64,000 nucleotides of DNA. Origin: an uncultured Pseudomonadota bacterium. Its GTDB lineage: Bacteria; Vulcanimicrobiota; Vulcanimicrobiia; Eremiobacterales; Eremiobacteraceae. The DNA lies in NCBI GenBank assembly GCA_963736005.1, contig CAVTNB010000001.1, positions 1,920,001 through 1,984,000 on the forward strand, in the 5' to 3' direction. A model generated the notes under the pieces. It was given only the letters and a program-made list of their open reading frames with translations. It was not told the DNA's origin and made no database searches. How positions within the stretch are numbered: position 1 is the first letter of the stretch; each line of letters opens with the position of its first letter. This document shows positions 21,953 to 47,527 of the stretch, in pieces. The position numbers and the translations under genes are program-made.

Positions 21953-22393
21953 ATGTCGGCATTTCCCAAGTTCACGGGACAATTCGAACATTCCCTAGAC
22001 GAGAAGGGCCGGTTAACCATTCCTGCCCGCATGCGGGCGCGCCTGGGCGACCATTTCGTGCTGACCATCGCGCCTCCTGAACCCTGCCTTGCCATGTATC
22101 CGGAACTAACCTGGTCGGAGTTCTGCAGCAAACTTGAAAGTGCGCCGCGCAAGGACGCTGCGTATCGTGCGTTCGTGCGGCATCTGTTCGCTCATACCGA
22201 GGAAATCTCACTCGACAGCCAAGGGCGCTTGCTGCTTCCTAGCACCTTGCGCGAGATGGCTGCGATCAAGAGAGACGCGGTCCTGGTTGGCACCCTAACG
22301 CGGGTTGAAATCTGGGCGGCGGAGACATGGCGCTCCATGGCAGCACCACCGGAGAACATGGCGGACCTTATGACCGAGCTTGGGCTCTACTAG
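21953..22393 (+). CDS. mraZ: Division/cell wall cluster repressor MraZ
   Basis: FTGQFEHSLDEKGRLTIPA, LDSQGRLLLP, RVEIW. Confidence 0.97.
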   Translation: MSAFPKFTGQFEHSLDEKGRLTIPARMRARLGDHFVLTIAPPEPCLAMYPELTWSEFCSKLESAPRKDAAYRAFVRHLFAHTEEISLDSQGRLLLPSTLREMAAIKRDAVLVGTLTRVEIWAAETWRSMAAPPENMADLMTELGLY

Positions 22394-23315
22394 CCATGAG
22401 CCGGTCATGCTCGAGGAGTGCTTGACCGTGTTAACATCCGCGGGCGAAGGCGCGCAGCAAAAAGTTTTTGTCGACGCGACGTTTGGCGCCGGAGGTCACG
22501 CAAGCGCATTGCTCGATGCCGTTGCGAAGAGCGTGGTGGTCGCAATCGATGCGGATCCCAAAGCAGTCGATCGAGCGAAACGTCTTGCCCGCAGGTATCC
22601 CGGACGGGTCATTGCGCAACACGCCAATTTCGGCGAACTCGATGCCGCACTCGATGCCGCAGGCGTGCGCAAGGTTGACGGCATTCTCTACGATCTGGGG
22701 CTCTCGTCGTTGCAGTTAGCGCAGCCAGAGCGCGGCTTTTCCTTTAGCGGCGACGAGCCATTGGACATGCGTCTCGATCCCTCATCAGATGTGCCCACCG
22801 CTGCGGATCTTCTCGAGCGCTTACCGCAAAGCGAATTAGAGTTGATCCTGCGGGAATACGGAGACGAACGTTTCGCGCGCTCGATAGCCCGCTCCATCGT
22901 GCGGCGTCGTCCACGCACGAAGATATGGCGTACGAGCGATCTCGTGGCCGCCGTTGTGCGGGCACTCCCTGCCAAGCGAGCGCACCAGCGCATCCATCCT
23001 GCCACTCGGACTTTTCAAGCGCTGCGCATTGCAGTGAATCAAGAATATCGCAATCTCGAGCGCAGTTTGGAGAGCGCAGTCCGTCGGCTAGGTCCGAACG
23101 GACGTGTCGTCGTCATCAGCTTTCATTCCGGCGAGGATCGCATCGTCAAACGGCGCTTCAAAGCGTTCCAAGAGTTGGGTCTCGCGCGCGTCTTGACCCG
23201 CAAGCCGCTACGCCCAAGCGCCGCAGAAATCGCGGCAAATCCGCGCAGCCGCAGCGCGAAACTGCGCGCGATCGCAACAGAAGACACCACAACAGCGAGG
23301 AGCATCACCGCATGA
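22380..23315 (+). CDS. rsmH: 16S rRNA m4C1402 methyltransferase
   Basis: HEPVML, VDATFGAGGHA, DLGLSSLQL, PLDMR, FQALRIAVN, SFHSGEDR, NPRSRSAKLR. Confidence 0.97.
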   Translation: MGSTSHEPVMLEECLTVLTSAGEGAQQKVFVDATFGAGGHASALLDAVAKSVVVAIDADPKAVDRAKRLARRYPGRVIAQHANFGELDAALDAAGVRKVDGILYDLGLSSLQLAQPERGFSFSGDEPLDMRLDPSSDVPTAADLLERLPQSELELILREYGDERFARSIARSIVRRRPRTKIWRTSDLVAAVVRALPAKRAHQRIHPATRTFQALRIAVNQEYRNLERSLESAVRRLGPNGRVVVISFHSGEDRIVKRRFKAFQELGLARVLTRKPLRPSAAEIAANPRSRSAKLRAIATEDTTTARSITA

Positions 23316-23746
23316 GTGCCCCAGCATACGCCTACAAGCCGCAGCTCGAACCAACGATCGATCCGCGAGATTCGGATTCGCGTCGGCGCCGGCGGCGCAT
23401 TGTGAAGGCCGCAGATTTTGCCCGCACGCTGACCTGGTGCATTATTCCGCTCGTGCTCGTTCTTCTCTACGTTGGCTTGATGGCAAGTCTCACGTCGCAG
23501 ACCTATCGCCTGTCCCTCGATCAGCGATTGCATGCATCCTTGGTCGAACGCAACAACGCACTCCACAGTCGCGAAGCACAGCTCGAGTCAGTCGAAAGCC
23601 TGCAGGCCGCCGCACGCAAGCTGCACATGAGCGAGCCCAAAAAAATCGCCTTCATTTATTCACCGGCAGCAGCTCAACCAACCCCGCGGCGACTCGCCCT
23701 CTTCGTTCAAATCCTTGGCGTCACGCGCTGGCTTGGCGTCCGGTAG
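23312..23746 (+). CDS. ftsL: FtsL-like cell division protein
   Basis: Basic N-terminus, single TM, coiled coil and AARKLHM; lies between rsmH and the PBP gene. Confidence 0.7.
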   Translation: MSAPAYAYKPQLEPTIDPRDSDSRRRRRRIVKAADFARTLTWCIIPLVLVLLYVGLMASLTSQTYRLSLDQRLHASLVERNNALHSREAQLESVESLQAAARKLHMSEPKKIAFIYSPAAAQPTPRRLALFVQILGVTRWLGVR

Positions 23747-25580
23747 GCGCCGCACTGCTGCGCGTGGCACCAAGCGCAGCGCGAGGTTAAAAGACCAAGA
23801 GCGCTCTCGCTTGGGGATTCGCTCTTTCGTTGTCTTCTGGGTCTTTTTTGCGTTGAGCGCACTGCTCGTCACGCGCCTTTATATCGTGCAGATACGAGAG
23901 GGCGCGGGTTTGGCGGCGAATGCCAGCGAGGAACAGGAGGTCACCTTCCCGGTCAACCCGCACCGCGGGGACATCGTGGACCGCTTTGGCATCGTCTTCG
24001 CGACAACGCTTCCTTCCTATTATGTGTCTGCCCGGCCCAACGCATTGTCACACCCGGATAGCGAGGCTGCCGAACTGGCACCCATTCTCAGCATCAGTCC
24101 CCTCCAGATCGAACGAGCGATGCGCAGCAAGCAACCGTTTGTCTATCTGGCACGCAACGTGCCAAAAGCAGTCGCCAGTAGAGTAGGAACGCTCAATCTT
24201 GCGGGCGTTGGTGTCGACGAAGAACCGATGGGTCGCCGCGTCGCCCCGCAAGCCGAAGTTGGTTCGACCGTCATTGGTTTCACAGGGGTCGACGATCAGG
24301 GTCTGGCCGGCGTTGAGTATGAATTCAACGGCGAGCTTGCGGGGCGTGAGGGAAGCGTTACCGAGGAGACCGATGCCGCGGGCCGCCCCATTCCGTTTGG
24401 GAAGCGCATCGTGCACCAGGCAGCGTCCGGTGACACGGTTGTCTTGACGATCGATCGAACGCTGCAGTTTGACGCCGACCAGATCTTGCACGCCACGGTG
24501 CAGCGGTATCACGCGCAAGGCGGATCGATCGTGGTCATGCGCGCCCGAACCGGCGAAATTTTGGCGCTTGCGAACGCACCTGATTTCGATCCCAACCACT
24601 ACGACCGCTCCCCCGCAGCTGCGTGGCGAAATCAAGCCGTCACGGATCCGTACGAACCGGGTTCAACGTTCAAGCTCATTACGGCAACCGCAGCGCTGGA
24701 TTCAGGAAAAGTTTCGCTTCAAGACACCTTTCCAGCGCTCAACGAACTACGCATTGGCGGGCGCGTGATCCACAATGCCGACGACGGGCTGATGGCATCC
24801 GGCCATAGTTCGGAAACCGTCGACGACATCGTGACATTTTCGCACAATGTTGGCGCGGCGCAAATTGCTCTACGCATCGGCAAGCAAACGATGTACGATT
24901 ACATTCGGCGCTTCGGCTTTGACGACGCGACAGACATCAACTTGCCCGGTGAGAGCACGGGCATCGTCGGAACTCCCGATGACTGGTGGGGTTCGCGCCT
25001 CGCGACGATAGGTTTCGGACAGGGTGTCTCCGTAACGCCGCTGGCGCTAGCGCGCGCGTATGCGGTTATCGCGAACGGCGGCGAGCTCATGCGTCCACTG
25101 CTGGTGCGATACGTGGTTTCGACCGATGGTCACATTGTTAAAGCGTTCGATCCGATCGTTGTGCGTCGCGTCATGTCGCCGCAAACCGCCGCGAGCTTGC
25201 TGACCATCCTGCGCGATGTCGTGCGGCGCGGCACCGGCAGAGGTTTGTCGCTGCCCGGGTACGCGATCGCGGGCAAGACCGGCACTGCACAAATGGTGAT
25301 CGACGGCAACTACGTCATGGGCGCGTACACCGCTTCCTTTATAGGCATCGTGCCGGCCGACAAACCCCAATATGTCATCCTCGTGAAGATCGATCGTCCG
25401 CAAGGCGCGTACTATGGCAGCATTGTCGCTGGCCCAGCCTTCCGCGCTCTCGCGAGCAAGGTCTTATGGCGAGAAGGCGTGTTGCCACGGCACGCGGCGG
25501 CAGCTCTCGACACATTGCCGAGTCGAGCCGCGGGTTCGGCGGCGGGAGACGCAGCAGGCGAGACGAGAAATCAACTCTGA
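23715..25580 (+). CDS. ftsI: Class B penicillin-binding protein (FtsI/PBP2 family)
   Basis: RGDIVDR, EPGSTFK (SxxK), SHN (SxN), GKTGTAQ. Confidence 0.92.
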   Translation: MASRAGLASGRRRTAARGTKRSARLKDQERSRLGIRSFVVFWVFFALSALLVTRLYIVQIREGAGLAANASEEQEVTFPVNPHRGDIVDRFGIVFATTLPSYYVSARPNALSHPDSEAAELAPILSISPLQIERAMRSKQPFVYLARNVPKAVASRVGTLNLAGVGVDEEPMGRRVAPQAEVGSTVIGFTGVDDQGLAGVEYEFNGELAGREGSVTEETDAAGRPIPFGKRIVHQAASGDTVVLTIDRTLQFDADQILHATVQRYHAQGGSIVVMRARTGEILALANAPDFDPNHYDRSPAAAWRNQAVTDPYEPGSTFKLITATAALDSGKVSLQDTFPALNELRIGGRVIHNADDGLMASGHSSETVDDIVTFSHNVGAAQIALRIGKQTMYDYIRRFGFDDATDINLPGESTGIVGTPDDWWGSRLATIGFGQGVSVTPLALARAYAVIANGGELMRPLLVRYVVSTDGHIVKAFDPIVVRRVMSPQTAASLLTILRDVVRRGTGRGLSLPGYAIAGKTGTAQMVIDGNYVMGAYTASFIGIVPADKPQYVILVKIDRPQGAYYGSIVAGPAFRALASKVLWREGVLPRHAAAALDTLPSRAAGSAAGDAAGETRNQL

Positions 25581-27082
25581 TGCAGCCTGTCATAGCGCAA
25601 CCCCTCGAACGCCTCTTCGAGGGGATGCCGGTAACGATCAAGGGAGATGCGAGGCTGACGATCACCTCGCTTGCGACTGATTCGCGCCAGGTGCGGCCTG
25701 GCGCGCTGTTTTTCTGCTTGCGCGGCGAGCGCGCCGACGGCCACGCGTTTGCGCAGGCTGCGCTCGACGCTGGCGCTCTCGGCATCGTCGCCGACCACGA
25801 TCTTTGCGCAGCGAGCGCGACGCGCGTCATCGTGACAGACCCACTCGCCGCGCTCTCCAAAGTTGCAGCGCGGTTTTATCGCGATCCAAGTTCCAGCTTG
25901 ACCATGGTTGGCGTCACGGGAACGAATGGGAAGACCACGACAACGTATTTTATTGAAGCGATCGCGCGCGCAGCAGGCGAGAGCTTTGGGGTCATTGGAA
26001 CGCTCGGCGCGCGGCTGGGTCAGACGCCGGTTGAGGACCTTGCCAACACGACCCCGTTCGCGCATGATGTCCAGCGGCTGTTGGCAGGTTTCCGAGATGC
26101 CGGCGCGCGGGGTGCGGTTCTTGAAGTCTCAAGTCATGCTTTGGATTTGCACCGAGTCGACGACGTCAAGTTCGACGTTGCCGTTCTGACGAATCTGACC
26201 CAGGATCACCTGGACTTTCATCGCAGCTTCGATGATTATCGCACAGCCAAGCGTAAGCTCTTCGCCGCCTCGATGGGTAAAGGCGGCGCTCGTCCAGTCG
26301 CCGTTCTCAACCTCGATGACGCCGAGGGGCGCGCACTCGCCCGCAGTTTGCAATCCGAGCGCCAGGGGCGCTGCCTGACCTACGGCGTCAACAACCGCGA
26401 TGCATTGATCGATGCGACCGATGTAACGATGGGCCCATCTAGTTCGCGCTTTTGGGTGCGCGGTCTGCGACCGGCTCCCTTTACTATCCGCCTGCCAGGC
26501 GCATTCAACGTTGCAAATGCGGTCTGCGCGCTTGCAACCGCGACGGCTCTCGATATCGACGTCGAAGCAATCGCCGAAGGACTCGAGTCGCTTGAAGAGG
26601 TGCCCGGCCGGATGATTGCGATTCCGGCGGGCGAGGTCGCCGTCTACATTGACTACGCACACACGCCCGACGGCATGGAGCAGATCCTGCGCGCCGCTCG
26701 CACGCTCACGAAGGGAAGGATTGTGTGCGTTTTCGGCTGCGGAGGAAATCGGGATGCGTCCAAGCGGCCTGCCATGGGCCGCATCGCGCAAGAGCTTGCG
26801 GATTATGTCATACTGACCACCGATAATCCGCGTCACGAAGAGCCTAGAGCAATCATCGACGACATCCTGGCTGGGATGGACGCTGGTGCAGGCCGTCACG
26901 AGGTGGTCGTCGATCGCACCGCCGCGATCGCGCGCGCGGTTGAGCTTGCTCGTGCCAGTGATTCTGTGGTCATCGCGGGCAAGGGTCACGAGAACTATCA
27001 AATCTTTGGTGACGAACGTCGACCATTTTCGGATGCCATCGCAGCGCGCGCTGCGATCGCGAAGAAGGAAGCAGTGCGATGA
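25580..27082 (+). CDS. murE: UDP-MurNAc-tripeptide synthetase, meso-DAP type
   Basis: GVTGTNGKTT, EVSSH, DYAHTPD, DNPR (DAP-specific motif), AGKGHENYQ. Confidence 0.97.
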   Translation: MQPVIAQPLERLFEGMPVTIKGDARLTITSLATDSRQVRPGALFFCLRGERADGHAFAQAALDAGALGIVADHDLCAASATRVIVTDPLAALSKVAARFYRDPSSSLTMVGVTGTNGKTTTTYFIEAIARAAGESFGVIGTLGARLGQTPVEDLANTTPFAHDVQRLLAGFRDAGARGAVLEVSSHALDLHRVDDVKFDVAVLTNLTQDHLDFHRSFDDYRTAKRKLFAASMGKGGARPVAVLNLDDAEGRALARSLQSERQGRCLTYGVNNRDALIDATDVTMGPSSSRFWVRGLRPAPFTIRLPGAFNVANAVCALATATALDIDVEAIAEGLESLEEVPGRMIAIPAGEVAVYIDYAHTPDGMEQILRAARTLTKGRIVCVFGCGGNRDASKRPAMGRIAQELADYVILTTDNPRHEEPRAIIDDILAGMDAGAGRHEVVVDRTAAIARAVELARASDSVVIAGKGHENYQIFGDERRPFSDAIAARAAIAKKEAVR

Positions 27083-28473
27083 GTCTTTCCTTCGCACGCT
27101 TTCTGGAAAAAAGCGGCGGGCGAGTACTCGCAGATGCCGCCTCGCTGCCGGCTCAGTTTCGACCAAGCACCGACTCGCGCACGCTCGCGTCCGGGGAAAC
27201 CTTCGTGTGCCTGCGCGGTCCCAATTTCGACGGCCACGACTACATCGCGCAAGCGATCTCCCGCGGAGCAGCCGCGATCCTTATCGACGACGACAGCAAG
27301 GTATCCCGCCCCGAGCGCGTCCCCGTCGTGCGCGTCGGCGACGTGAAGGAAGCCTATCTCATTGGTGCGACGACTGCGCGCCGTGCGTTTGCCGGTCAGG
27401 TCATCGCGATCACGGGGAGCAACGGCAAGACGACGACCAAGGAATTTGCCGCCCAGATCATCGGCGCGCAGCGGCGCGTCCTCGCGACGCCGCAAAATGA
27501 AAACAACGAGCTGGGCGTCGCCAAATTGTGCTACCAGCTCAACTCCGAGGCAGAGGTTGCGGTGGTTGAATTTGGCGCTCGCCATCCCGGCGAAATTGCG
27601 CAACTCGTCGACATAGCCGCGCCCGACATTGGCGTCCTCACAAACATTGCCGAAGCGCATCTTGAGTTTTTTAGCGATCAAGCAGAGCTCGCGCGAACGA
27701 AATTTGCTATTTTTTCCAAAGGAGCTCGCGCCGTTTGCAATGCTGCCGACGTGTGGTCGCGGATGCTGGCGGCGGAAGCAGGAGTGGATGGCAAGGCGTT
27801 GTGGGTCAGGCTGGTCGGCGATCCAGTCATGTCAGGCATCATGCTCGAGGCGGGCTTGCCCAAGGACGGCCAACTGGCCGTGACCTTTGGTGCATCACAC
27901 GCCTTTGCGGGGTGGCGTCTCGTTGGCGAGCATCACCTACGCGATGCTTTGCAAGCCGCCGGCGCAGCGATTCTCGCGGGCGTCGCATTTGAAGATGCGC
28001 TTGCGCAACTGCAGGGCTTGCGTTTGCCGCCCGGTCGCTTCGAGCTCCACCACGCGCCATCGGGGGCGACGATCGTCTACGATGCTTACAATGCAAGCCC
28101 GAGCTCGATGATGCACGCGTTACGGTCCTTCGCCGAGTTGCCGGCGACGCGGCGTATCGCAGTGCTTGGGAGCATGGCCGAACTCGGCGCACAGGCGGAG
28201 CGGCATCACGAGGCGGTCGGTGCGGCAGCGGTGGACGCGGGCATTGGCATCCTCTATGTCGGCGGACCATTCGCCGCCGCGCTGGCGGGCGGTGCGAAGC
28301 GCGCAGGCATGTCTGCCGAGAACGTGATCGCTTTTGCAAGCAATGACGAAATCGCTGACCGCTTGCGCCGCACGCTTGCCCCAGGCGATTGCGTGTTGCT
28401 CAAAGGGTCGCGCGTGCAAAAGATGGAGGAGATCTTGGCTCGCGTGCTCGGATCGGGAGTCCTCGCCTCGTGA
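27079..28473 (+). CDS. murF: UDP-MurNAc-tripeptide--D-Ala-D-Ala ligase
   Basis: TDSR, ITGSNGKTTTKE, DAYNASP.SM, LGSMAELG, LLKGSR. Confidence 0.97.
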   Translation: MSLSFARFLEKSGGRVLADAASLPAQFRPSTDSRTLASGETFVCLRGPNFDGHDYIAQAISRGAAAILIDDDSKVSRPERVPVVRVGDVKEAYLIGATTARRAFAGQVIAITGSNGKTTTKEFAAQIIGAQRRVLATPQNENNELGVAKLCYQLNSEAEVAVVEFGARHPGEIAQLVDIAAPDIGVLTNIAEAHLEFFSDQAELARTKFAIFSKGARAVCNAADVWSRMLAAEAGVDGKALWVRLVGDPVMSGIMLEAGLPKDGQLAVTFGASHAFAGWRLVGEHHLRDALQAAGAAILAGVAFEDALAQLQGLRLPPGRFELHHAPSGATIVYDAYNASPSSMMHALRSFAELPATRRIAVLGSMAELGAQAERHHEAVGAAAVDAGIGILYVGGPFAAALAGGAKRAGMSAENVIAFASNDEIADRLRRTLAPGDCVLLKGSRVQKMEEILARVLGSGVLAS

Positions 28474-29186
28474 GCCCCACTTCGTTTGTGCTCGACATCG
28501 CGCTCTTGCCGCCGCGCATCGTCGCGCTGCCGGTGCGCACGCCGCTCGTCAAACCTGGAGATGATCTGCCGGCCATGCTGTGCGAGTGCCTGCGTGGCCT
28601 GCTTCGAGGCGACGACATCATCTGCGTTTCCGAAACAGCGGTGGCGATCTCGCAGGGTCGATCGATTCCGGCCGAGGCGATCCGGCCCTCGCGACTCGCG
28701 CGGCTCCTCGCTAGGCGCGCCGGTTCGTACGCGACAGTCAGCCAGCCCGAGTCGATGCAACTTGTTTTGGAGAGTGCGGGGACGCTGCGGGTGTTGGCGG
28801 CGGCAGCCGCAGGCGCTGCCGGGCGGCTCGTTGGGCGACGAGGCGATTTCTACCGCCTCTTGGGATCGGCCGTGGCGGAGATCGATGGTTACACAGGTAC
28901 CATGCCGCCCTACGAACGTCACATCGTGCTGGGTCCCCGCAATCCGCACATCGTTGCCCAAACCATCGCACAAGTCTGCGCCGCTCATGCCTGCATCGTC
29001 GACGCAAACGATTTGGGCAAGGCGGAAGTGCTCGGCGCAAGCGCAGGAGTCCGAACTGAAATCGTGCGCCGCTGTCTGTTGTTGAATCCAGCGGGCAACG
29101 CGGATGAGCAGACACCCGTGGTCGTTTTGAAATATCGACCAGAGCCTGGGTCGCCTGCTCGCTCTCCTTTGCTCGAAACAGCGTGA
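28470..29186 (+). CDS. CofE / F420-0:gamma-glutamyl ligase-like protein of unknown function
   Basis: PVRTPLVKPGDDL, DDIICVSETAVAISQGR, IDGYTG, IVDAND, NPAGNADEQTPVVVL; GTGA overlaps with both murF and mraY. Confidence 0.82.
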   Translation: MSPTSFVLDIALLPPRIVALPVRTPLVKPGDDLPAMLCECLRGLLRGDDIICVSETAVAISQGRSIPAEAIRPSRLARLLARRAGSYATVSQPESMQLVLESAGTLRVLAAAAAGAAGRLVGRRGDFYRLLGSAVAEIDGYTGTMPPYERHIVLGPRNPHIVAQTIAQVCAAHACIVDANDLGKAEVLGASAGVRTEIVRRCLLLNPAGNADEQTPVVVLKYRPEPGSPARSPLLETA

Positions 29187-30181
29187 TCTTGGCCTCGCTG
29201 CTGGACGGATTGTTCGCCTTCGTACCCGTGCGTGCACTCGCAGTGATCTCGGGTTTGATCGTCGCGATCGCTGTTATTCCGTGGCTCATCAGCGCTCAGA
29301 AACGCCTGCATCTCGGACAGCAAGTCTACGATGATGCTCCGAAGACGCACGCGACAAAACAAGGAACCCCAACCATGGGTGGGGTTGCGTTCGTCTTGGC
29401 GGCGTTGGTTGGATGGATGCTGGGAGGTTTTCACAACTCGCTGCCGCTCATCGCGCTCGTGGTCGCTGCCGGGGCCATAGGGTTCATCGATGACCTGCTC
29501 ATCGTGCGCGGCCGACGCGCCCTTGGTTTGCGTGCGCGCGAAAAGTTTTCCCTGATCGCGGTTGCGGCGATCGCCTACGTCTTTTGGGTGTACAACACAG
29601 GCTTGGGTGGGCCCGAGCAGACGTGGTTTGGCGGCACCGCTTCGCTGCCACTGTGGCTGTGGAGTGGTCTGGCAGTGCTTGCCATCGTGGGTTCCGCGAA
29701 TGCGGTGAATCTTACCGACGGCCTTGATGGCTTGGCAGCTGGAGCGACCATTCCAACGCTGATTGGGCTCCAGCTCACCGCACAATATCTGGGCTTGCCG
29801 GGCGGGTCGACCACAGCAGATGCCGTGATTGGCGCGTTGCTTGGGTTCCTTTGGTTCAACCGACACCCCGCTCGCATTTTTATGGGCGATACCGGCTCGC
29901 TCGCCTTGGGAGCGCTTATCGCCGGCGTCGCGATCGAGTCCCATGCCCTGCTGCTGCTCCCTCTCTTTGGCATCGTCTTCGTTCTCGAAGCGCTCTCAGT
30001 CATTGCACAAGTCACAAGCTACAAGACAACAAGCCGTCGCATTTTCAAGATGAGTCCCTTGCATCACCACTTTGAACTCTCTGGTTGGCGCGAAACGGCA
30101 GTGACCTCAACGTTCGTCGCGTTTGCGGTGGTCGCCGCCGCTGCGACTTGGCTCACGTGGTGGTCGAGTAACAAGCTGTAG
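29183..30181 (+). CDS. mraY: Phospho-N-acetylmuramoyl-pentapeptide transferase
   Basis: KQGTPTMGG, GFIDD, NAVNLTDGLDGL, FMGDTGS, SPLHHHFEL. Confidence 0.98.
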   Translation: MILASLLDGLFAFVPVRALAVISGLIVAIAVIPWLISAQKRLHLGQQVYDDAPKTHATKQGTPTMGGVAFVLAALVGWMLGGFHNSLPLIALVVAAGAIGFIDDLLIVRGRRALGLRAREKFSLIAVAAIAYVFWVYNTGLGGPEQTWFGGTASLPLWLWSGLAVLAIVGSANAVNLTDGLDGLAAGATIPTLIGLQLTAQYLGLPGGSTTADAVIGALLGFLWFNRHPARIFMGDTGSLALGALIAGVAIESHALLLLPLFGIVFVLEALSVIAQVTSYKTTSRRIFKMSPLHHHFELSGWRETAVTSTFVAFAVVAAAATWLTWWSSNKL

Positions 30182-30201
30182 CAGCGGACCTTTTGGTTCG
30201 C
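30178..30201 (+). repeat. Family B REP whose GTAG supplies the mraY stop
   Basis: GTAG-CAGCGGACC-TTTT-GGTTCGC. Confidence 0.75.
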
Positions 30202-30227
30202 CCGCGAATCACATGTCGAAAAGAAGA

Positions 30228-31610
30228 ATGTACAACAAGAACGATTCGATCATCATTATCGGCCTCGGGCGTAGCGGACTTGCGACCGCGCGCGTGCTTC
30301 GCAAACGCGGCGTGTCGGTCGTAGCCTATGACGATAAACCACCTCACTTGCTCGGTTCGGAAAACGCCGCGCTCCTCAAAATCGGCGTTCCGCTCATCGG
30401 AGCCGGCGAGCTCGACGCGGCGGCGAAAACAGCAACCTGTGCCGTGATCTCGCCCGGCGTACCCCAGACCAACCGTGCGGTGCGGCAGTTGCAAGATGCA
30501 GGGGTGACGGTCATTTCAGAAATCGAGCTTGCCTATCAGCTGGCGTCTAGCCCGATCATCGCGGTCACCGGGAGCAAGGGGAAGTCCACGACCACCGCAC
30601 TCATCGGTCACATCCTCACGACGGGCGGGATCGCCAATCGCGTGGGCGGCAACATCGGCAATCCGCTCGTGCTCGAGACCGTTTCGGCTCCGGCGGACGC
30701 TTGGGTCGTGGCAGAGGTATCGAGTTTCCAGCTTGAGGGCATTCGCACGTTTGCGCCGCGCATCAGCGTTCTCCTGAACATTTCTCCAGATCACCTCGAT
30801 CGCTATCCTTCGATGGAAGAATACGCGGAAGCGAAGTTTCGCATCTTCGCAAATCAAAAAACGAAAGATTTCTTCATCGGCAACGCCGATGACGAGTATT
30901 GTGCGTGGCTGCGCAGCGGAGCGGGCAGAAGCATTCCGGCTCGCGCACTCTGGTTTGGCATGGAACCAACCGACCGTGGCCTCTCGATGACGATGTTAGG
31001 CGACGCGATCGTGCTTCGCGACAAGCGCCGCGAGGTACCCGTCGTTCACGCGCACGATCTGAAGATTCGCGGGAAACACAATGTCGCCAACGCCATGGCG
31101 GCAGCCCTGGCTGCTTTGAGCGCGGGGGTCAAGCTGGAATTCGTGCGCCAAGCCTTATCGACGTTCGAGCCACTGCCGCACAGGCTCACGCCCGTGCATC
31201 GCGCTTTTGGGGTCACGTGGATTGACGATAGCAAGGCAACCAACCCAGCGTCTGCGACGGCGGCTCTCGAGGCCATGGAAGCGCCAGTCATCCTCATCGC
31301 AGGGGGCAAGAGCAAGAAGACCGATTTCACAAATTTTGCCGCGGCGGCATCTCGCATCGCCAAACGGGTCATCCTCATCGGTGAAGCCGCTCAAGAAATT
31401 GGCGAGCTCGTCGAAGGACCGCCGGTCTGCTACGCTCGTGATTTGCAAACTGCGGTGATCGATGCCGCGGCTGCTGCACGCAAAGGCGATGTCGTCCTCC
31501 TGTCGCCCGCGTGTTCATCCTTCGATATGTTTGAAAGCGCCGAGCAACGCGGCGAACACTTCGCCAAGCTCGCTCGCGAATACGGCAATCATAACGTGGC
31601 CGCGTCGTGA
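30228..31610 (+). CDS. murD: UDP-MurNAc-L-Ala--D-glutamate ligase
   Basis: GLGRSG, SPGVP, TGSKGKSTT, GGNIG, EVSSFQL, DDSKATN, LSPACSSFD. The start may be 30213. Confidence 0.97.
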   Translation: MYNKNDSIIIIGLGRSGLATARVLRKRGVSVVAYDDKPPHLLGSENAALLKIGVPLIGAGELDAAAKTATCAVISPGVPQTNRAVRQLQDAGVTVISEIELAYQLASSPIIAVTGSKGKSTTTALIGHILTTGGIANRVGGNIGNPLVLETVSAPADAWVVAEVSSFQLEGIRTFAPRISVLLNISPDHLDRYPSMEEYAEAKFRIFANQKTKDFFIGNADDEYCAWLRSGAGRSIPARALWFGMEPTDRGLSMTMLGDAIVLRDKRREVPVVHAHDLKIRGKHNVANAMAAALAALSAGVKLEFVRQALSTFEPLPHRLTPVHRAFGVTWIDDSKATNPASATAALEAMEAPVILIAGGKSKKTDFTNFAAAASRIAKRVILIGEAAQEIGELVEGPPVCYARDLQTAVIDAAAAARKGDVVLLSPACSSFDMFESAEQRGEHFAKLAREYGNHNVAAS

Positions 31611-32743
31611 TCGATCGCCGGGCTCCCGATGCCTTGGTGCTGATCGTGACTGGGCTGCTGACTGCCATGGGCATCGTCATGGTCTTTTCTGCATCGTCTG
31701 CAGTGGCGTACATGCAATTTCACGACGCGGCCTACTATCTCAAGCGAGAGCTGCTGTGGGCTGCCGTCGGCGTTCTGGCGCTCGTCGTGGGCCTGCGCTT
31801 TGACTACGCAAAGCTGCGGCCGGCAGCCCCCTGGATTTTTGCGATCGCAATCGTGCTGCTTGTCGCAGTCTTGATTCCCAAGTTCGGCTTTATCGAGGGC
31901 GGCGCGCGGCGCTGGCTCTCGCTCGGCCCGTTCACGTTTGAACCCTCGGAGTTTGCCAAGCTCGCCCTCGTGCTTTTCTTGGCTGGCTTGTTTTCTGCTC
32001 GATCCGATGGCGCTGCGTCATTCGGGCGCGCAGGGTTTCCCGCGCTCTTTGCCGTCGGCTTGTGCTTTGCACTCGTCATGCGCGAGCCCGACCTCGGGAC
32101 TGCCTCGCTCTATCTCATGACGACCTTCGTCATGCTCTTCGTCGCCGGAGCGCCCCTCATGCAACTCGCGCTCGAAGGTGCAATCGCCGTGCCGGCGTTG
32201 CTGGCCTTCATCTATTCCAGCGCTTATCGCCGAACGCGTTTTCTCGCCTTCCTGCATCCCTGGAAAGATCCGCAGGGGACGGGTTATCACATCATCCAGT
32301 CGCTCTATGCGCTGGGTTCCGGCGGGCTCTTTGGGTTGGGTCTCGGACAGAGCCGTCAGAAGTTTGGATACTTGCCCGCTCAATATACTGATTTCATTTT
32401 CTCGATCATTGGCGAAGAGCTCGGATTCGTTGGGGCTGTCGCCGTCCTATTGCTCTTCTTGCTTTTTGCGTATCGAGGCGTGCGCATCGCCATGAGAGCC
32501 GAGGATCGTTTTGGATTCTACCTTGCAATCGGCCTGACTGCCTCGATCACGCTCCAGGCGCTCGTCAACATCGGCGTGGTGACCGCCTCGTGGCCAGTCA
32601 CGGGGGTGCCCCTTCCCTTCATTAGTTATGGCGGAACGTCGCTTGTGATCACCCTCTTTTCCGTCGGCCTGCTCGCGAGCGTTTCGCGGGGACGACGCAG
32701 AGCCGCGGCTTCACTGCCGACATCGCGGGCAAAGGTGTCGTAG
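31607..32743 (+). CDS. ftsW: SEDS peptidoglycan polymerase FtsW
   Basis: GARRW, EPSEFAK, EPDLGT, TDFIFSIIGEELG, GVPLPFISYGG. Confidence 0.96.
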   Translation: MIDRRAPDALVLIVTGLLTAMGIVMVFSASSAVAYMQFHDAAYYLKRELLWAAVGVLALVVGLRFDYAKLRPAAPWIFAIAIVLLVAVLIPKFGFIEGGARRWLSLGPFTFEPSEFAKLALVLFLAGLFSARSDGAASFGRAGFPALFAVGLCFALVMREPDLGTASLYLMTTFVMLFVAGAPLMQLALEGAIAVPALLAFIYSSAYRRTRFLAFLHPWKDPQGTGYHIIQSLYALGSGGLFGLGLGQSRQKFGYLPAQYTDFIFSIIGEELGFVGAVAVLLLFLLFAYRGVRIAMRAEDRFGFYLAIGLTASITLQALVNIGVVTASWPVTGVPLPFISYGGTSLVITLFSVGLLASVSRGRRRAAASLPTSRAKVS

Positions 32744-32745
32744 CG

Positions 32746-33933
32746 ATGCGCGTCCTTTTTTCGGGCGGTGGTACCGGAGGCCACCTGTATCCTACGCTCT
32801 CGCTCGCGCAAGCGCTCTTGCGTGGGCGCGAAGGGGTTTGCAAGCCCACGCAAAGCGAGGGAGCGCCGGTTGGCAACGGCAGCGCTTCGCTGCACGCGGT
32901 CCTCTTTGTCGGCGCACAGGGGAATATCGACGAACACCTGCTGACGCGCGACGATGTTCCTTACAAAACGGTGAGCAGCAAGCCGCTCTCTGGGCTGTCG
33001 AACGTGCGGGCAGCGCTGAATCTCGCAGGCAATGCGGCGGCGCTGGTGCAGGCAGTTCCGATCGTTTCGCATTTTCGCCCAGACGTCATCGTCGGTAGTG
33101 GCGGTTATGCATGCGCCCCCGCGATTCTCGCCGGCGCGATGTTACAGTCAAGTGGTGCTTTGCCGAATCTGCGTGTCATGCTGATGGAGCCCAACGTCAC
33201 GCCGGGTTTGGCCAACCGGCGACTGGCTCGCTATGCCAACCAAGTGTGGGGCGCTTATCCAGACTCGGACACGTCCAAGCACTTTGGGGAGAAGTTTGTG
33301 CTCACCGGGATTCCGGTGCGAGCCGATCTCTACACGCCCATGTCCAAAGCGCAAGCGCGCCAGAGCCTCGGCTTGGACCCCAACCGTTTTACCGTACTGA
33401 TCTTCGGCGGCAGCCAGGGCGCGCGCAGCATCAACGTTGCGACGAGCGGCATGGTGGCACGGCGGCGGCTGCCGGGGGATTGGCAGATCTTACACCTCAC
33501 CGGGGAGCGAGATTACGAATGGATGCTCGCGGAGCGAAAAACCGAGCCGAACGAAAACCGGTATATGGCAAAGGCGTATTTGGATAACATGGCGCTCGCG
33601 TACTGGGCGGCCGATCTCGCTGTCAGTCGTTCCGGAGCATCAACGTTGGCCGAAATCTGCACAGTCGGGCTGCCGGCGATTCTTATACCGTACCCGCACT
33701 CGAGCGAGAACCATCAACGCGCGAATGCGAAGTACTTTGTCGATCGAGGAGCTGCTCACACCATGCAAGATGGGGCGCTGACCCCCGATTCGCTGTACTG
33801 GATGCTCGTCGACGTCGCCGATCCTGAGAAGCTTTCCGCGATGACCGAGAAACTGCGACGGCTGGCACACCCGCAGGCGGTGGAAACCATGCTCAATCGC
33901 CTCCTCGACAACCATGTAGCGGCGGATCGATAA
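32746..33933 (+). CDS. murG: Lipid II GlcNAc transferase MurG, with an N-terminal insertion
   Basis: GGGTGGHLYP, GSGGY, GGSQGA, SRSGASTLAE, HQRANA. Confidence 0.96.
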   Translation: MRVLFSGGGTGGHLYPTLSLAQALLRGREGVCKPTQSEGAPVGNGSASLHAVLFVGAQGNIDEHLLTRDDVPYKTVSSKPLSGLSNVRAALNLAGNAAALVQAVPIVSHFRPDVIVGSGGYACAPAILAGAMLQSSGALPNLRVMLMEPNVTPGLANRRLARYANQVWGAYPDSDTSKHFGEKFVLTGIPVRADLYTPMSKAQARQSLGLDPNRFTVLIFGGSQGARSINVATSGMVARRRLPGDWQILHLTGERDYEWMLAERKTEPNENRYMAKAYLDNMALAYWAADLAVSRSGASTLAEICTVGLPAILIPYPHSSENHQRANAKYFVDRGAAHTMQDGALTPDSLYWMLVDVADPEKLSAMTEKLRRLAHPQAVETMLNRLLDNHVAADR

Positions 33934-33938
33934 TGCAT

Positions 33939-33963
33939 GTAGAGGGCGACTGTAAAGTCGCCC
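33939..33963 (+). repeat. Family A REP between murG and murC
   Basis: GTAG-A-GGGCGACT-GTAA-AGTCGCCC. Confidence 0.85.
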
Positions 33964-34011
33964 ACCTTCGGAAAGGGCTCGTCAACACTTGAGCCAAAAG
34001 CGGATATCGAC

Positions 34012-35433
34012 ATGATGCGTTCGCACCGGCACGTTCATTTTGTTGGCATCGGCGGCATTGGCATGAGCGCGATCGCGCGCGTCCTGCTGGCGCTGGGTGT
34101 GGGCGTGTCCGGCTCCGATCTCAAGATGAACGGAACGCTCGAGAAACTGCGCGGCTTGGGTGCAACGGTGACGTTCGGCCACGCTTCCGAAAACATCAAG
34201 GGCGCGGACGCCGTCGTGATTTCATCGGCCATTCCCAGCGACAATCCCGAAGTCATCGCCGCTCAAAAAGCCGGCATCCCAGTCATGCAGCGCGCCGAGA
34301 TGCTGGCGGAAATCATGGCAGACAAAAAGGGCATCGCGGTCTCAGGCACGCACGGCAAGACGACAACGACCTCGATGATCGCTTCGGTGCTCGATGCCGG
34401 GGGCATGGCGCCGACGGTGCTCATCGGCGGGGAAGTCAACGATCTCGGTGCCAACGCGCGTTTGGGGTCCGGCGACATCGTCGTGGCAGAGGCGGACGAA
34501 AGCGATGCCTCGTTTCTGCGGCTGCGCCCCACCTGCGCCGTCGTCACGAATATCGAGAACGATCATCTCGGCTACTATCGCGATCTCGAGCATCTCATCG
34601 AGACGTTCACGGCCTTCATCGAGCGGGTGCCGCCGGATGGCTGCATCGTTGCCTCCGCCGACTGCGCGGCTGTGGCAGAGCTATTGCGCAGATTCCGTCA
34701 AGCACCGAGTTTACTTGGCGATCCCACGATAGTCACCACAGGTTTTGATGCTGCCGCGGACATACGGGCTGTCGACCCCGAGCTTGCGGATTTTGGTTCG
34801 TCTTTTAGCGTTGTTACCGGAAACAAAACGCTGGGGGAGATCGTGCTGCGGGTGCCTGGCCTTATCAACGTGTCGAACGCGCTGTGCGCGGTGGCTGTAG
34901 GACTGCGCTGCGGTGTCAGCTTCGACGTGATCGCGCGGGCGCTTGCGCGTTTTCGCGGCGTGGCGCGGCGCTTCCAAGTTCTGTACGAAAGCGGATCGCT
35001 GATGATCGTCGACGATTACGCGCATCACCCCACCGCCGTCCAAGAGACGATTGCGGCGGCGCGGGCGTACTGGCCGGGTCGATTGGTTGTCGCTTTTCAA
35101 CCCCACCGCTACAGCCGCACGGCGTACCTCGTGCGTGATTTCGCCCGCGCCTTGTTGCGCGCGGACGAGATCGTGGTCGCTGATATTTACCCAGCGGGCG
35201 AACTTCCGCTGCCGGGCGTACGCGCCGAATCTATCGTCGATTTCATCGCCGACCTCGATCAACAAAAAAGCGCAATTCATCTTCCCAAACCCGCTGATGT
35301 CCTGGCCTACCTGCAACGAACGATCAAGTCAGGCGACCTCGTGCTGACGCTCGGAGCAGGCGACATTGGCGGCGTTGCGCACGAACTTGCGGCGGGTCTG
35401 TCTGCCGCCGATGCCGGCGTCGCAAATCTCTAG
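34012..35433 (+). CDS. murC: UDP-MurNAc--L-alanine ligase
   Basis: HFVGIGGIGMS, GTHGKTTT, EADESD, DDYAHHPT, FQPHRYSRT, LGAGDI. Confidence 0.98.
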   Translation: MMRSHRHVHFVGIGGIGMSAIARVLLALGVGVSGSDLKMNGTLEKLRGLGATVTFGHASENIKGADAVVISSAIPSDNPEVIAAQKAGIPVMQRAEMLAEIMADKKGIAVSGTHGKTTTTSMIASVLDAGGMAPTVLIGGEVNDLGANARLGSGDIVVAEADESDASFLRLRPTCAVVTNIENDHLGYYRDLEHLIETFTAFIERVPPDGCIVASADCAAVAELLRRFRQAPSLLGDPTIVTTGFDAAADIRAVDPELADFGSSFSVVTGNKTLGEIVLRVPGLINVSNALCAVAVGLRCGVSFDVIARALARFRGVARRFQVLYESGSLMIVDDYAHHPTAVQETIAAARAYWPGRLVVAFQPHRYSRTAYLVRDFARALLRADEIVVADIYPAGELPLPGVRAESIVDFIADLDQQKSAIHLPKPADVLAYLQRTIKSGDLVLTLGAGDIGGVAHELAAGLSAADAGVANL

Positions 35434-35445
35434 CGCGGCTGTCGA

Positions 35446-36366
35446 ATGAGCACCGCATCCTCGATTCCAGGTCTGGCGGTACGCGCATCTGACCGCGATC
35501 GGTTGCGAACCATGCTTGGTGATTCGGTAAGCTTCGACGAACCGATGGCTCCCAAGACCTCCATGCGAGTGGGCGGCAACGCGGCGGCATATGCCGGCGT
35601 TTCGAATACCAAAGACCTCGTGGCCTTGCTGCAGCTGTGCAGCGCGGAGCGAATTGCCTGGACCGTTCTTGGTCTTGGCAGCAACGTTGTGGTGCGCGAT
35701 GAGGGCTTTGCCGGCGTCATTATCCGTCTCGTCGGCGACTTCACGCGCATTGCCGTCGATGGAAACCTCGTTCGAGCCGGTGGTGCGGCTCCGATCGTTT
35801 CGCTGTGTCGAGAAGCAGCGAAGGCAGGGCTCGAAGGCGCCGAAGCGCTCGTGGGAATACCGGGGACCGTCGGTGGAGCAATTCGCATGAACGCGGGAAC
35901 CAAGGTCGAAATCGGTGCTCTCGTGCGCAGCGTCGAGGTTGTTGTGGCCGGTGAAAACGTGCAAACCTTGACCCTTCCAGAATTTGCCTACCGCAGCTCG
36001 ACGCTCGACCGCACGGCCGTCGTGTGTTTCGCGGAATTGGAACTTCAAGCAGGCGATAAGGCGGCCGTGCAGGCACGTCTGCGCGAATACATTGACCGCC
36101 GAAACGCGACTCAGCCTCTCGAGTTGCCAAACTCGGGCAGCATCTTTCGGAATCCACCGGGCGACTTTGCGGCCCGGCTTATCGAGACTGCCGGATGCAA
36201 AGGCATGCGCATCGGGGGCGCAGAGGTTTCAAGCAAGCACGCGAACTTTATCGTCAATCGGGGCGGCGCGACCAGCGCGGACGTCGTTGCTCTCATGGCG
36301 CGCGTTCGCGAAGCGGTCAAGAACAAGCACAGCGTGGACTTGGAACCCGAAGTTCAAATTCTCTAG
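35446..36366 (+). CDS. murB: UDP-N-acetylenolpyruvoylglucosamine reductase
   Basis: GLGSN, GIPGTVGGAIRMNAG, YRSS, SGSIFRNP, KHANFIVN, LEPEV. Confidence 0.97.
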   Translation: MSTASSIPGLAVRASDRDRLRTMLGDSVSFDEPMAPKTSMRVGGNAAAYAGVSNTKDLVALLQLCSAERIAWTVLGLGSNVVVRDEGFAGVIIRLVGDFTRIAVDGNLVRAGGAAPIVSLCREAAKAGLEGAEALVGIPGTVGGAIRMNAGTKVEIGALVRSVEVVVAGENVQTLTLPEFAYRSSTLDRTAVVCFAELELQAGDKAAVQARLREYIDRRNATQPLELPNSGSIFRNPPGDFAARLIETAGCKGMRIGGAEVSSKHANFIVNRGGATSADVVALMARVREAVKNKHSVDLEPEVQIL

Positions 36367-36372
36367 CCTTCC

Positions 36373-37308
36373 ATGACCAAACCAACGATCGCTGTGCTCA
36401 TGGGCGGCAACTCCGCGGAACGCGAGATTAGTTTGCAAACGGGTGCCGGGGTGAGCGAGGCCCTTGCGTCGCTTGGTTACCCTGCAAAACACTTTGACTA
36501 TGACGGCGGCCTTGTGGAGGCATTGCAGCGCGCCAAGCCAGCGGCGGTTTTCAACGCGCTTCACGGAGGAGCCGGCGAAGACGGCACGGTGCAAGCACTG
36601 CTCGATTGGCTAGGCATCGGTTATCAAGGATCGGGTGTGCGCGCGTGCGCCGTCGCGATGGATAAGTGGCAGACGAAAGCCCTCTTGGTTGCAGAGGGCC
36701 TGCCCTGCCCGCGCGGGATACGATTGCGCGCTGCCGATGCTGCATCGTTTCCCGTCCTGGAGAAATTCGGTTTGCCGTGCGTTGTCAAACCAAGCGCGCA
36801 AGGTTCGGCAGTTGGGGTGGGCCTAGTGCGCGCGCCGAGCGACTGGCCCGCAGCGGTCGCAAACGCTTCAATCGGCGCCGCTGACATTCTCGTTGAGGAG
36901 TATATTGAAGGGCGAGAATTTACGGTTGCGATTTTGGGCGACGAAGCGCTGCCCCTCGTCGAGATCACGCCGCACGACACATTTTACACCTATCGCGCCA
37001 AGTATACTGTGGGTGGTAGTACGCACACCGTGCCTGCCGCGCTCGAGCCTGCTTTGGCAACATCCATGCAACGCGATGCGCTCGCGCTCCACCGCGCGCT
37101 CGGAGCAAGAGATTATTCTCGCGTCGACATTATGTTGAGGACATCCGGCCACTATGCGATATTGGAATGCAATACGCTCCCGGGTCTCACGCCCTTAAGT
37201 CTCTTCCCGGATGCCGCTCGCGCTGCGGGAATCCCGTATGACACTTTGATCGAACGATTGCTCTTGTGCGCGTTGTCACGCTCATCGGGTCGCTTCAGCG
37301 TTCTTTGA
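36373..37308 (+). CDS. ddl: D-alanine--D-alanine ligase
   Basis: GGNSAEREISL, LHGGAGEDG, GSAVG, EEYIEGRE, YTYRAKY, ECNTLPG. Confidence 0.97.
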   Translation: MTKPTIAVLMGGNSAEREISLQTGAGVSEALASLGYPAKHFDYDGGLVEALQRAKPAAVFNALHGGAGEDGTVQALLDWLGIGYQGSGVRACAVAMDKWQTKALLVAEGLPCPRGIRLRAADAASFPVLEKFGLPCVVKPSAQGSAVGVGLVRAPSDWPAAVANASIGAADILVEEYIEGREFTVAILGDEALPLVEITPHDTFYTYRAKYTVGGSTHTVPAALEPALATSMQRDALALHRALGARDYSRVDIMLRTSGHYAILECNTLPGLTPLSLFPDAARAAGIPYDTLIERLLLCALSRSSGRFSVL

Positions 37309-37382: not shown

Positions 37383-38117
37383 ATGCTGGGCGAGTTTTGG
37401 TCGGAACTTTTCAAAAGCGTCGGCGGCGTCCTAGGTGGCAGCCAGCGCGAGTTTGTCTTTACCGATCAAGGGGATCTCTCGCCTGAAGCGTTCGCCGAAC
37501 AAGCGGCGAGTCAAACGGGTACGCTCGCGGCGCCTCCGATGTGGGTCCAGGCCAAGACGCAAATCGAGGCGCTGCAAAAAGCTGATCCGAACTTCATCGA
37601 ATCAGACTTTTTAGTGCAGGCGTCAAAAACATTTGGCGCAGCGCTTGCGGCTGAGGGGGCCATGGATGCCTCGCCAATCACGGCGCTCGTCACGCCAACA
37701 TTCTTGCAATCTTTCCAACAGCGCATCGATCATTGGCGTAGCGGTGGGTTCACAAGAACCGTTGGTGACGTCAAGCTCGATCCGCCAGCGACCCTCAAGG
37801 TAACAGTTGGCGGCGAACAGGAAGCGATCACCGTTCGATTCACCGGCAGCGCGAAGCGGTTTACGAAAGAAGACATGACCAATCTTCTGACCGAGGGAAG
37901 CGCCCAGTCCGATTCATTTACCGAATTTGCAACCTTTGTGCGGCCGGCCGGTTCGACGACGCCGCAGAGCACGGCGGTTGGGGCTCCGAGCCACTGCCCC
38001 TCCTGTGGCGCGCCAGTCGACAGTGGCGCAATGAAGTGCGCGTTTTGTGGCGCACCGCTGACCGGCACGGGTGGCACGTGGTTGCTCGATAAGCTGAGCG
38101 CCTCCGCATACACGTAA
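37383..38117 (+). CDS. Tim44-like domain protein with C-terminal zinc ribbon
   Basis: LQKADPNF..SDFL, ITVRF, FTEFATFVR, CPSCGAP...KCAFCG, WLLDKL. Confidence 0.75.
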   Translation: MLGEFWSELFKSVGGVLGGSQREFVFTDQGDLSPEAFAEQAASQTGTLAAPPMWVQAKTQIEALQKADPNFIESDFLVQASKTFGAALAAEGAMDASPITALVTPTFLQSFQQRIDHWRSGGFTRTVGDVKLDPPATLKVTVGGEQEAITVRFTGSAKRFTKEDMTNLLTEGSAQSDSFTEFATFVRPAGSTTPQSTAVGAPSHCPSCGAPVDSGAMKCAFCGAPLTGTGGTWLLDKLSASAYT

Positions 38118-38162
38118 AGCCCAGGTATTCGCGCGTAAGCCCAAAAAGACCGAAGCTTCCCA

Positions 38163-41279: not shown

Positions 41280-43268
<1,989 letters not shown>

Positions 43269-44530: not shown

Positions 44531-44647
44531 ATGGATACCGTAGGCCAGGCGCCCAAAGCGCTACCAACCGGTACTGTAGCCTTTTTGTTCACCGACATCG
44601 AGGGGTCGACCGAGAACCTTGCGATCGAGGAGGTCGCGCGTGTCTGA
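44531..44647 (+). pseudogene. 38-aa internally deleted remnant of a cyclase-STAND-TPR gene
   Basis: MDTVGQAPKALPTGTVAFLFTDIEGSTE/NLAIEEVARV*: the family N-terminus joined to the family C-terminus; AGGA RBS. Confidence 0.85.
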
Positions 44648-47400: not shown

Positions 47401-47433
47401 CATGCTAGTGCTCATCGCGCAATTGGGTCGCGC

Positions 47434-47527
47434 GTCGCGAATAAATTCGCGACAACTACATTGATCTTGGAAGTAGTCGCGCAAATTTATTTGCGCAAGA
47501 ATGTCGTCGCGCAAATTTATTTGCGCG
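47434..47527. repeat. Three family C REPs between cyclase copies 1 and 2
   Basis: GTCGCGAAT-AA-ATTCGCGAC-AACTAC; GTAG-TCGCGCAAAT-TT-ATTTGCGC; GTCG-TCGCGCAAAT-TT-ATTTGCGCG. Confidence 0.88.

Follow-up and report, generated by a model that had tools for sequence, protein, structure and literature searches.

The 64,000-nucleotide stretch analyzed here (the window; assembly GCA_963736005.1, contig CAVTNB010000001.1, positions 1,920,001 to 1,984,000) carries, between the cell-wall genes murF and mraY of its dcw cluster, a gene for a protein of 238 amino acids (aa), X, which by structure prediction has the fold of CofE, the coenzyme F420-0:L-glutamate ligase, and which belongs to a distinct, uncharacterized subfamily of PF01996. 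The role of X is probably an as yet undescribed step in the synthesis or modification of cell-wall building blocks. More specifically, and with a confidence that stops a little short of even, we propose that it is a cytoplasmic CofE-fold enzyme that has left F420 metabolism and been recruited to peptidoglycan precursor synthesis as a nucleoside triphosphate (NTP)-dependent amide ligase. We read it in this way because the fold and its acidic and amide residues have been kept, the F420-specific parts have been lost, and the protein is made together with MurF, or fused to it, just before MraY.

The X gene extends from window position 28470 to 29186 on the + strand in a frame that is open in translation. 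Its GTG start (28470-28472) shares bases with the TGA stop of murF (28471-28473) in the context CTCGCCTCGTGAGCC, and its own TGA stop (29184-29186) shares bases with the GTG start of mraY (29183-29185) in the context ACAGCGTGATCTTG; the resulting GTGA overlaps, at 28470..28473 and 29183..29186 on the + strand, had been pointed out in the first-pass annotation and are read directly in the sequence. The gene upstream, murF (UDP-MurNAc-tripeptide--D-Ala-D-Ala ligase, where MurNAc is N-acetylmuramic acid; 464 aa, 27079..28473, + strand), matched TIGR01143 with 335.4 bits (cut-off 288.6), and the gene downstream, mraY (phospho-MurNAc-pentapeptide transferase; 332 aa, 29183..30181, + strand), matched TIGR00445 with 267.8 bits (cut-off 192.05). 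An NCBIfam scan delimited the surrounding dcw cluster (22380..37308, + strand), with the gene order rsmH, a penicillin-binding protein (PBP) gene of FtsI/SpoVD-like type, murE of the meso-diaminopimelate (mDAP) type, murF, X, mraY, murD, ftsW, murG, murC, murB, and ddl. Because this cluster is complete and every canonical Mur ligase is present, X replaces none of them.

The position of X is conserved among relatives. When other genomes of the window's class were assayed by tblastn, all 29 loci returned had MurF, X, MraY, and MurD in this order (28 of 28 when locus L016 was left out). Four of these loci, which belong to a single genus, have MurF and X fused in frame, an architecture also present in the 736-aa protein P0122. 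Of the 26 unfused loci, our own included, 22 had their murF stop and X start in a usable NTGA overlap, the remaining four overlapping there by 8-17 bases, and 19 had an in-frame overlap of the NTGA kind between the X stop and the mraY start. The counts given throughout for X homologs, synteny, true CofE, fusions, overlaps, and FolC include the unpublished genome G128 (which contributes L016), and for FolC the unpublished genome G159 is counted as well; our conclusions do not depend on either genome. These results showed that X is translationally coupled and conserved in its placement within the class, and the loss of the dcw position in relatives that the first-pass annotation had considered did not occur.

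The relationship of X to CofE was clear from its fold and partial in its sequence. X matched PF01996 (F420_ligase) with 56.9 bits (gathering score 25), covering only profile positions 2-82 of 218, and no other Pfam family was detected in it: there was no Mur ligase catalytic, middle, or C-terminal domain and no asparagine-synthase domain. The matching N-terminal segment, residues 22-104 (28533..28781, + strand), was recovered again as the PF01996 match in the genome search and is the sole part that profile and phmmer could align in sequence to CofE; phmmer and a profile made from 20 orthologs matched the solved CofE structures (7ULD/2PHN) over X residues ~16-92 only. Against the CofE equivalog models TIGR01916/NF009809, X scored 37.7 versus a cut-off of 180.65 bits and 43.8 versus 274 bits. 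The AlphaFold2 model of X had a predicted local distance difference test score (pLDDT) of 77.4, and Foldseek returned CofE as the sole full-length fold match (E 1e-8). With VIA-align, model residues 15-237 superposed on residues 1-226 of CofE chain 2PHN_B with a Z score of 13.0 and a root-mean-square deviation of 4.6 A over 185 residues, the next unrelated match having a Z score of 2.9; the model thus indicates that X has the CofE fold. X also matched the profile of its own subfamily over the full length and has the subfamily's motifs, which vary little or not at all among its members: G-x-F-Y-R, I-D, D-x-N-D, as well as N-P-x-G-[NQ]-x-x-x-x-T-P.

Residues that could form an active site are strongly conserved. 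The 20 orthologs, 63-77% identical, shared 98 invariant columns, and hhalign of 25 diverse members of the X family with six true CofE proteins gave a probability of 97.6% over 136 columns. In AfCofE we take D109, D150/T151, and E208 to be the metal ligands. The invariant Asp178 of X, in V-D-A-N-D-L-G (Asp178-Ala-Asn180-Asp181, 29001..29012, + strand; the first Asp and the Asn invariant), paired in hhalign with the Asp of the CofE motif S-D-S-F-G-R/T-D-T-N-G-R-C, which alignment of true CofE to AfCofE identified as D150. Asp139 (28884..28886, + strand), within the invariant EIDGYTGTMPPYERH motif, belongs to a segment that hhalign placed against the GxD metal-site motif of CofE, give or take about 3 positions, and it may be the equivalent of D109. 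For the C-terminal 60 residues of X, which would include the E208 region, hhalign gave no trustworthy alignment to CofE even when forced to be global. A family signature nevertheless lies there, Asn206-Pro-x-Gly-Asn-x-Asp-x-Gln-Thr-Pro216 (29085..29117, + strand), invariant or nearly so family-wide, and on a manual reading that hhalign did not confirm, its N-P-x-G-N...T-P might correspond to the M-G-E...I-P of CofE. Between Asp178 and this signature, where CofE has its hairpin region, X appears to have ~26 residues fewer. The AfCofE segment G153-C155 (of D-T-N-G-R-C), which faces the isoalloxazine ring of F420 (PMC10861534), is not kept in X, where D-A-N-D-L-G occupies the aligned place. The persistence of the invariant polar residues suggests that X is likely to be catalytically active. 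Prediction of a complex between MurF and X, each with its own alignment, gave a score of 0.00, a result that weighs neither way.

The genome from which the window comes (G000; 2.84 Mb), assigned through the names of close homologs to Candidatus Eremiobacterota, for which Vulcanimicrobiota is another name, is 84% complete, and the gene absences reported for it carry that completeness. Its one PF01996 gene is X itself. CofD was not found, the best match (22.8 versus 257.45 bits) being YvcK; CofC was not found, the best match reaching 24.4 versus 105 bits; and CofG/H was not found, two CofH-like matches reaching 295.7 and 287.6 versus 374.1 bits. The two CofH-like genes scored best as MqnC (425.7 bits, cut-off 428.1) and MqnE (414.8 bits, cut-off 434.55), just under the cut-offs; they are adjacent radical-SAM genes outside the window (G000:C1:1354388-1357540), and the pair points to the futalosine route to menaquinone. 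The first-pass annotation had singled out cofC, cofD, and fbiC-type genes for a check of the genome, and none scored above cut-off in G000; its remark that the window holds no other F420 biosynthesis gene agrees with our scans of the 64 kb.

Across the phylum, X homologs were present in 149 of 151 sampled genomes, the two misses being 75% and 67% complete. True CofE scored above cut-off in none of the 82 genomes of the window's class (G000 included) and in 39 of 69 in other classes, and genomes with a true CofE, for example G058, retain an X paralog as well. In a quick maximum likelihood tree of 70 rows, 66 X-family proteins were split from four true CofE proteins, all four from this phylum, with 100% SH-aLRT support and branch lengths of 2.6 + 2.6. 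Within the X family, the Eremiobacteria clade (100%) was not grouped with the paralogs of its own phylum; it nested in an 18-row clade (98% SH-aLRT) with Amidase_3-linked proteins of Bacillota and one Limnochordales protein. Profile scores and tree both set X apart from CofE, in agreement with the earlier view of X as CofE-like and not a true CofE; the grouping with CofE that would have contradicted that view was not seen.

The gene neighbors and fusion partners of more distant relatives also lead to the cell wall. When the profile of 20 orthologs was searched against 1.84 billion cluster representatives, 935 proteins matched at E<=1e-3, and 163 did so at E<1e-30 with full-length matches. A Pfam scan of 38 family proteins revealed X domains fused to Amidase_3 (six proteins), to an AsnB-like glutamine amidotransferase/asparagine synthase (six), to TPR repeats (three), and, in one protein each, to MurF, a polysaccharide deacetylase, an M20 peptidase, GNAT, and adenylate kinase. 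The AsnB-like fusions (P0190, P0220, P0237, P0241, P0249, and P0267) are 800-940 aa long, with a complete AsnB-like part followed by a C-terminal X domain, and together with two unfused proteins they formed a clade of their own with 96% support. The family was absent from the control model organisms (E. coli, B. subtilis, Caulobacter, and others).

We then scanned species-representative genomes with an Amidase_3-X alignment and sorted the resulting 79 loci by tblastn and frame checks. There were 18 Amidase_3-X fusions, 43 adjacent same-strand Amidase_3/X pairs, and six other nearby arrangements, in Bacillota; of the remainder, one locus was cut by a contig end and 11 lacked an amidase. The amidase parts had no obvious export signal in three sequences read by eye, and they hold invariant His, Glu, His, and Glu positions, presumably the zinc and catalytic residues. 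In ten of the 11 amidase-free loci a wall gene was no more than about 110 bases away, and Pfam agreed in the loci scanned. In one, from another Vulcanimicrobiota genome, X again lies between murF and mraY; in five from Clostridia, X is directly upstream of murB and behind a gene for a solute-binding protein, with RapZ downstream in four of the five and YvcK as well in three; in two, X adjoins murJ, overlapping it in the one from Phycisphaerae; and in two from Cloacimonadota the order is mreC-X-mreD-PBP2, with rodA next in L139 and L138 ending within PBP2. A decarboxylase gene was present within 1 kb in 35 of 68 Amidase_3-linked loci, and these were of two unrelated types, 25 OKR_DC_1 and 10 pyruvoyl-dependent arginine decarboxylase (134 bits, cut-off 106.95). 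The 18 fused loci had no decarboxylase (0/18), and 14 of them had a gene for a SpoVB-like flippase.

A mechanism for X can be sketched from CofE, in which GTP and two metal ions activate a carboxylate that is then joined to an amine, in a manner closely like that of MurD (PMC10861534). By analogy, the likeliest course is that a free carboxylate would be converted to an acyl phosphate by means of an NTP and a divalent metal, and X would couple this acyl phosphate to an amine. For Eremiobacteria, we would place the reaction at the point where MurF hands over to MraY, with a MurNAc-peptide precursor as the substrate and UDP-MurNAc-pentapeptide as its simplest form, and the product would be a stem peptide capped by an amine-bearing group (ammonia, an amino acid, agmatine, or another polyamine). 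We favor addition of an amine or polyamine to a stem-peptide carboxylate because the partners of the relatives include two unrelated decarboxylases, an AsnB-like amidotransferase, GNAT, and M20; re-ligation of a peptide in the manner of Mpl is its main rival. Cadaverine or putrescine on the alpha-carboxyl of D-Glu is documented in Negativicutes (PMC10628300, PMC12826042, PMC5020339), and those papers, in the parts covered here, name no gene for the enzyme that adds the diamine.

The first-pass annotation had suggested that X links an amine or an amino acid to the stem peptide. Much of what surrounded that suggestion has stood: X is not CofE, the F420 pathway was not found, the dcw place is conserved, and relatives lie beside or are fused to wall enzymes. 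The addition of an amine itself did not gain the same footing, the sole hint being the decarboxylases beside Amidase_3 and X in Bacillota. Several observations weigh against an amide ligase of the cell wall or against its polyamine version. No decarboxylase was found near X in the window's class, and the one OKR_DC_1 homolog of G000 is ~235 kb from X, beside tmk and holB. The sequence similarity of X to CofE ends after about 160 residues, and the loops 139-148 and 210-214, the most conserved in X, were modeled at pLDDT below 50; for these two reasons the active-site reading rests on alignment and not on structure. Related loci include close kin, so that locus counts overstate independence. In addition, an outer-membrane tether in G000 may use a pyruvylated polymer and not polyaminated peptidoglycan, since the genome has a CsaB-like pyruvyl transferase and one SLH protein, a 582-aa open frame that is possibly an OmpM-type tether (C1:1887150-1887281 for the SLH protein and C1:1480917-1481759 for the transferase). 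An argument for polyaminated peptidoglycan from the outer-membrane tether was dropped as unsupported, and nothing in G000 favors polyamines in particular. Vulcanimicrobium alpinus has thin peptidoglycan and an outer membrane (PMC9758169); no wall chemistry is given in the passages covered here, and the words 'diaminopimelic' and 'murein' are absent from the text of that paper.

Members of the family outside a wall context weigh in the same direction. In other classes of the phylum the X homolog is ~400 aa long, membrane-anchored, and 34-43% identical to X, with an N-terminal membrane helix, a conserved G-D-C motif, and an Ig-like sandwich preceding the X domain (loci L037-L056; proteins P0131, P0133, P0136, and P0146; model pLDDT 87.7). 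The Ig-like domain gave generic GAE/MSP/ApaG-like matches that offer no functional clue. By tblastn, none of 20 loci of the membrane-anchored form had MurE/F/D or MraY within 5 kb, and the neighbors in nine such loci scanned with Pfam were unrelated and not conserved. WOR-3 and Patescibacteria are further groups in which the family is common. When a tighter alignment of this subgroup was scanned on metagenomes, only seven of the 38 loci found had a clear wall or division gene within two open reading frames (three class A PBP, two M23 peptidase, an Amidase_3 with PG_binding_1, and an FtsA). Another four had looser envelope links, two had S-adenosylmethionine decarboxylase, and the rest had unrelated neighbors. 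The S-adenosylmethionine decarboxylase genes, of spermidine synthesis, adjoin X on the opposite strand (L166:6708-7085 and L183:3821-4198) and are a third kind of polyamine-pathway neighbor of X.

Among the alternatives to amine addition, we regard as unlikely, and yet foremost, that X is a recycling ligase like Mpl, one that links the L-Ala amine of a recovered stem peptide to the D-lactyl carboxylate on UDP-MurNAc and so gives a product that feeds MurF or MraY. Amidase_3 cuts precisely the MurNAc-L-Ala bond, and it is to Amidase_3 proteins, with invariant zinc and catalytic positions and, in the three sequences read, no obvious export signal, that the nearest relatives of X are fused or adjacent; the Clostridia genes lie directly upstream of murB, whose product makes UDP-MurNAc, and behind a solute-binding protein; and the MurF-X fusion also suits a product that MurF takes as substrate. 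Such a reaction would be the counterpart of the first one of CofE, which joins glutamate to the lactyl carboxylate of F420-0 (PMC1971073, PMC10861534). G000 encodes AnmK (334.5 bits), so some wall recycling occurs there, and Mpl was not found in it, the best match (181.4 versus 388.7 bits) being MurC itself. The amidase, which looks active and cytoplasmic, murB, and the lactyl chemistry fit this alternative equally well. Re-ligation leaves the decarboxylase, AsnB-like, GNAT, and M20 partners unexplained, however, and LdcA (Peptidase_S66) was not found in G000, a genome that is 84% complete.

It is similarly improbable that X is not an amide ligase at all and serves as a precursor-binding or hand-over factor or a regulator of MurF or MraY, or catalyzes other chemistry such as phosphorylation or hydrolysis. 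Such a role would be consistent with the restriction of sequence alignability to the N-terminal third, with the apparent shortening by ~26 residues in the hairpin region and the replacement of the CofE GRxxR segment, and with partners as different as TPR repeats and a membrane anchor with an Ig-like domain. On the other side, many Asp, Asn, Glu, Arg, and Thr residues are invariant across phyla at 30-40% identity, as expected for a catalytic site, Asp178 aligns with the metal-site Asp of CofE, and the adenylate kinase fusion suggests use of a nucleotide.

We give very little credence to X as a FolC2-type enzyme that glutamylates dihydropteroate, folate, or another cofactor, a possibility that the first-pass annotation had not raised. 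The chlamydial protein CT611 (FolC2), a COG1478 homolog of CofE, complements an E. coli folC mutant, and the carboxylate it acts on is not that of F420, a cofactor its organism lacks (PMC1971073), showing that the CofE fold can serve other substrates. Canonical FolC, however, is present in G000 (356.2 bits, cut-off 162.65), adjoining FolP (283.4 bits), and across the window's class it passed its cut-off in 78 of the 81 genomes; we excluded a FolC2-type folate ligase because canonical FolC is present and X has mur rather than folate neighbors. Finally, that X is a bona fide CofE which glutamylates F420-0 is practically excluded, despite the PF01996 match above the gathering score and the name 'coenzyme F420-0:L-glutamate ligase' that databases give its relatives, by scores far below the equivalog cut-offs, by the missing CofC, CofD, and CofG/H, by the occurrence of true CofE elsewhere in the phylum as a separate gene beside an X paralog, by the fully supported tree split, by the loss of the ring-facing G153-C155 segment, and by the frequency of the family in Patescibacteria and WOR-3.

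Other features of these genomes were noted in passing. In the Clostridia loci L136, L143, and L145, the CofE-like X gene shares a cluster with murB, a PHP protein gene, RapZ, and YvcK; because YvcK belongs to the CofD family, CofD-like and CofE-like homologs occur there together beside murB in organisms without F420, and CofD and CofE are consecutive enzymes of F420 biosynthesis. In G000 the RapZ-YvcK pair is at C1:440260-442390, far from X. The dcw cluster of the window stops after ddl without ftsQ, ftsA, or ftsZ, as judged by the window scan, and the genes that follow it (37383-39290, + strand) encode a Tim44-like/zinc-ribbon protein and an M50 peptidase that has CBS domains. Some 20 kb upstream of the cluster (7380-8138, - strand) there is a polysaccharide deacetylase gene of the PgdA/CDA1 family, and a polysaccharide deacetylase domain is also what is fused to the X domain in protein P0224. 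Further downstream, there are four paralogs in a row (44619-55903, + strand), in each of which an adenylate/guanylate cyclase domain is joined with an AAA/NB-ARC-type NTPase and with TPR repeats, the first of them perhaps split (44619-45275 and 45235-47400). The open reading frame at 42303-43268 (+ strand) matches the Cpn60/GroEL family over its C-terminal half only (profile 251-490) and could represent a chaperonin gene that is truncated or frameshifted or whose start was mis-chosen.

To our knowledge, the catalogue of cytoplasmic steps in peptidoglycan synthesis is regarded as complete, and the known precursor ligases all belong to the Mur, ATP-grasp, or AsnB families. A literature search that did not extend to supplementary files returned no description of the X family in cell-wall synthesis. 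The diamine-adding activity of Negativicutes has been known biochemically for decades, and in the literature covered, which was seen in part, no gene was found assigned to it. That the X family is the missing enzyme class by which a stem-peptide carboxylate of the precursors receives, inside the cell, an amine such as agmatine, putrescine, or cadaverine, or else an amino acid, seems to us a long shot; if it were so, amine-capped peptidoglycan would be far commoner than thought, the family being found in Eremiobacterota, Bacillota, Cloacimonadota, Phycisphaerae, WOR-3, and Patescibacteria. An amide ligase of a second, unrelated fold would mean a new step in a textbook pathway and new wall chemistry. 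A CofE fold is wired into the dcw operon class-wide, is fused to MurF in one genus, and in many Bacillota forms one protein with a MurNAc-L-Ala amidase. The family carries the JGI name 'F420-0:gamma-glutamyl ligase-like protein' and is automatically annotated as an F420 enzyme even in Patescibacteria; it may have been overlooked because it is absent from model organisms. Cultured carriers include Pelotomaculum propionicicum, P. terephthalicicum, and Caloramator, so the question is directly testable.

Four known systems help to place X. With CofE and FbiB's N-terminal domain (PF01996, TIGR01916; PDB 2PHN, 2G9I, 7ULD), X has its predicted fold in common over the whole length, an alignable N-terminal stretch of ~80 residues, an Asp that aligns with one at the CofE metal site, and probably the acyl-phosphate chemistry; it differs in lacking the GRxxR segment, in forming a separate clade, in its C-terminal 60 residues, which are not alignable, and in its context, since CofE is found with cof/fbi genes, whereas X is found with cell-wall genes in a genome without a detected F420 pathway. 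From FolC2, which is found where folC is missing and together with folate genes, X is set apart by gene content and context. MurT/GatD amidates D-iGlu, Mpl re-ligates tripeptide, and AsnB1/LtsA amidates mDAP; X may act like these enzymes, by cytoplasmic NTP-dependent activation of a carboxylate on peptidoglycan precursors, and some of its relatives are fused to AsnB-like amidotransferases, but the fold of X is unrelated to theirs. The diamine-adding activity of Negativicutes is the same kind of reaction as the one we propose for X and is tied to it by analogy only; the peptidoglycan there is polyaminated, whereas G000 has CsaB and one SLH protein.

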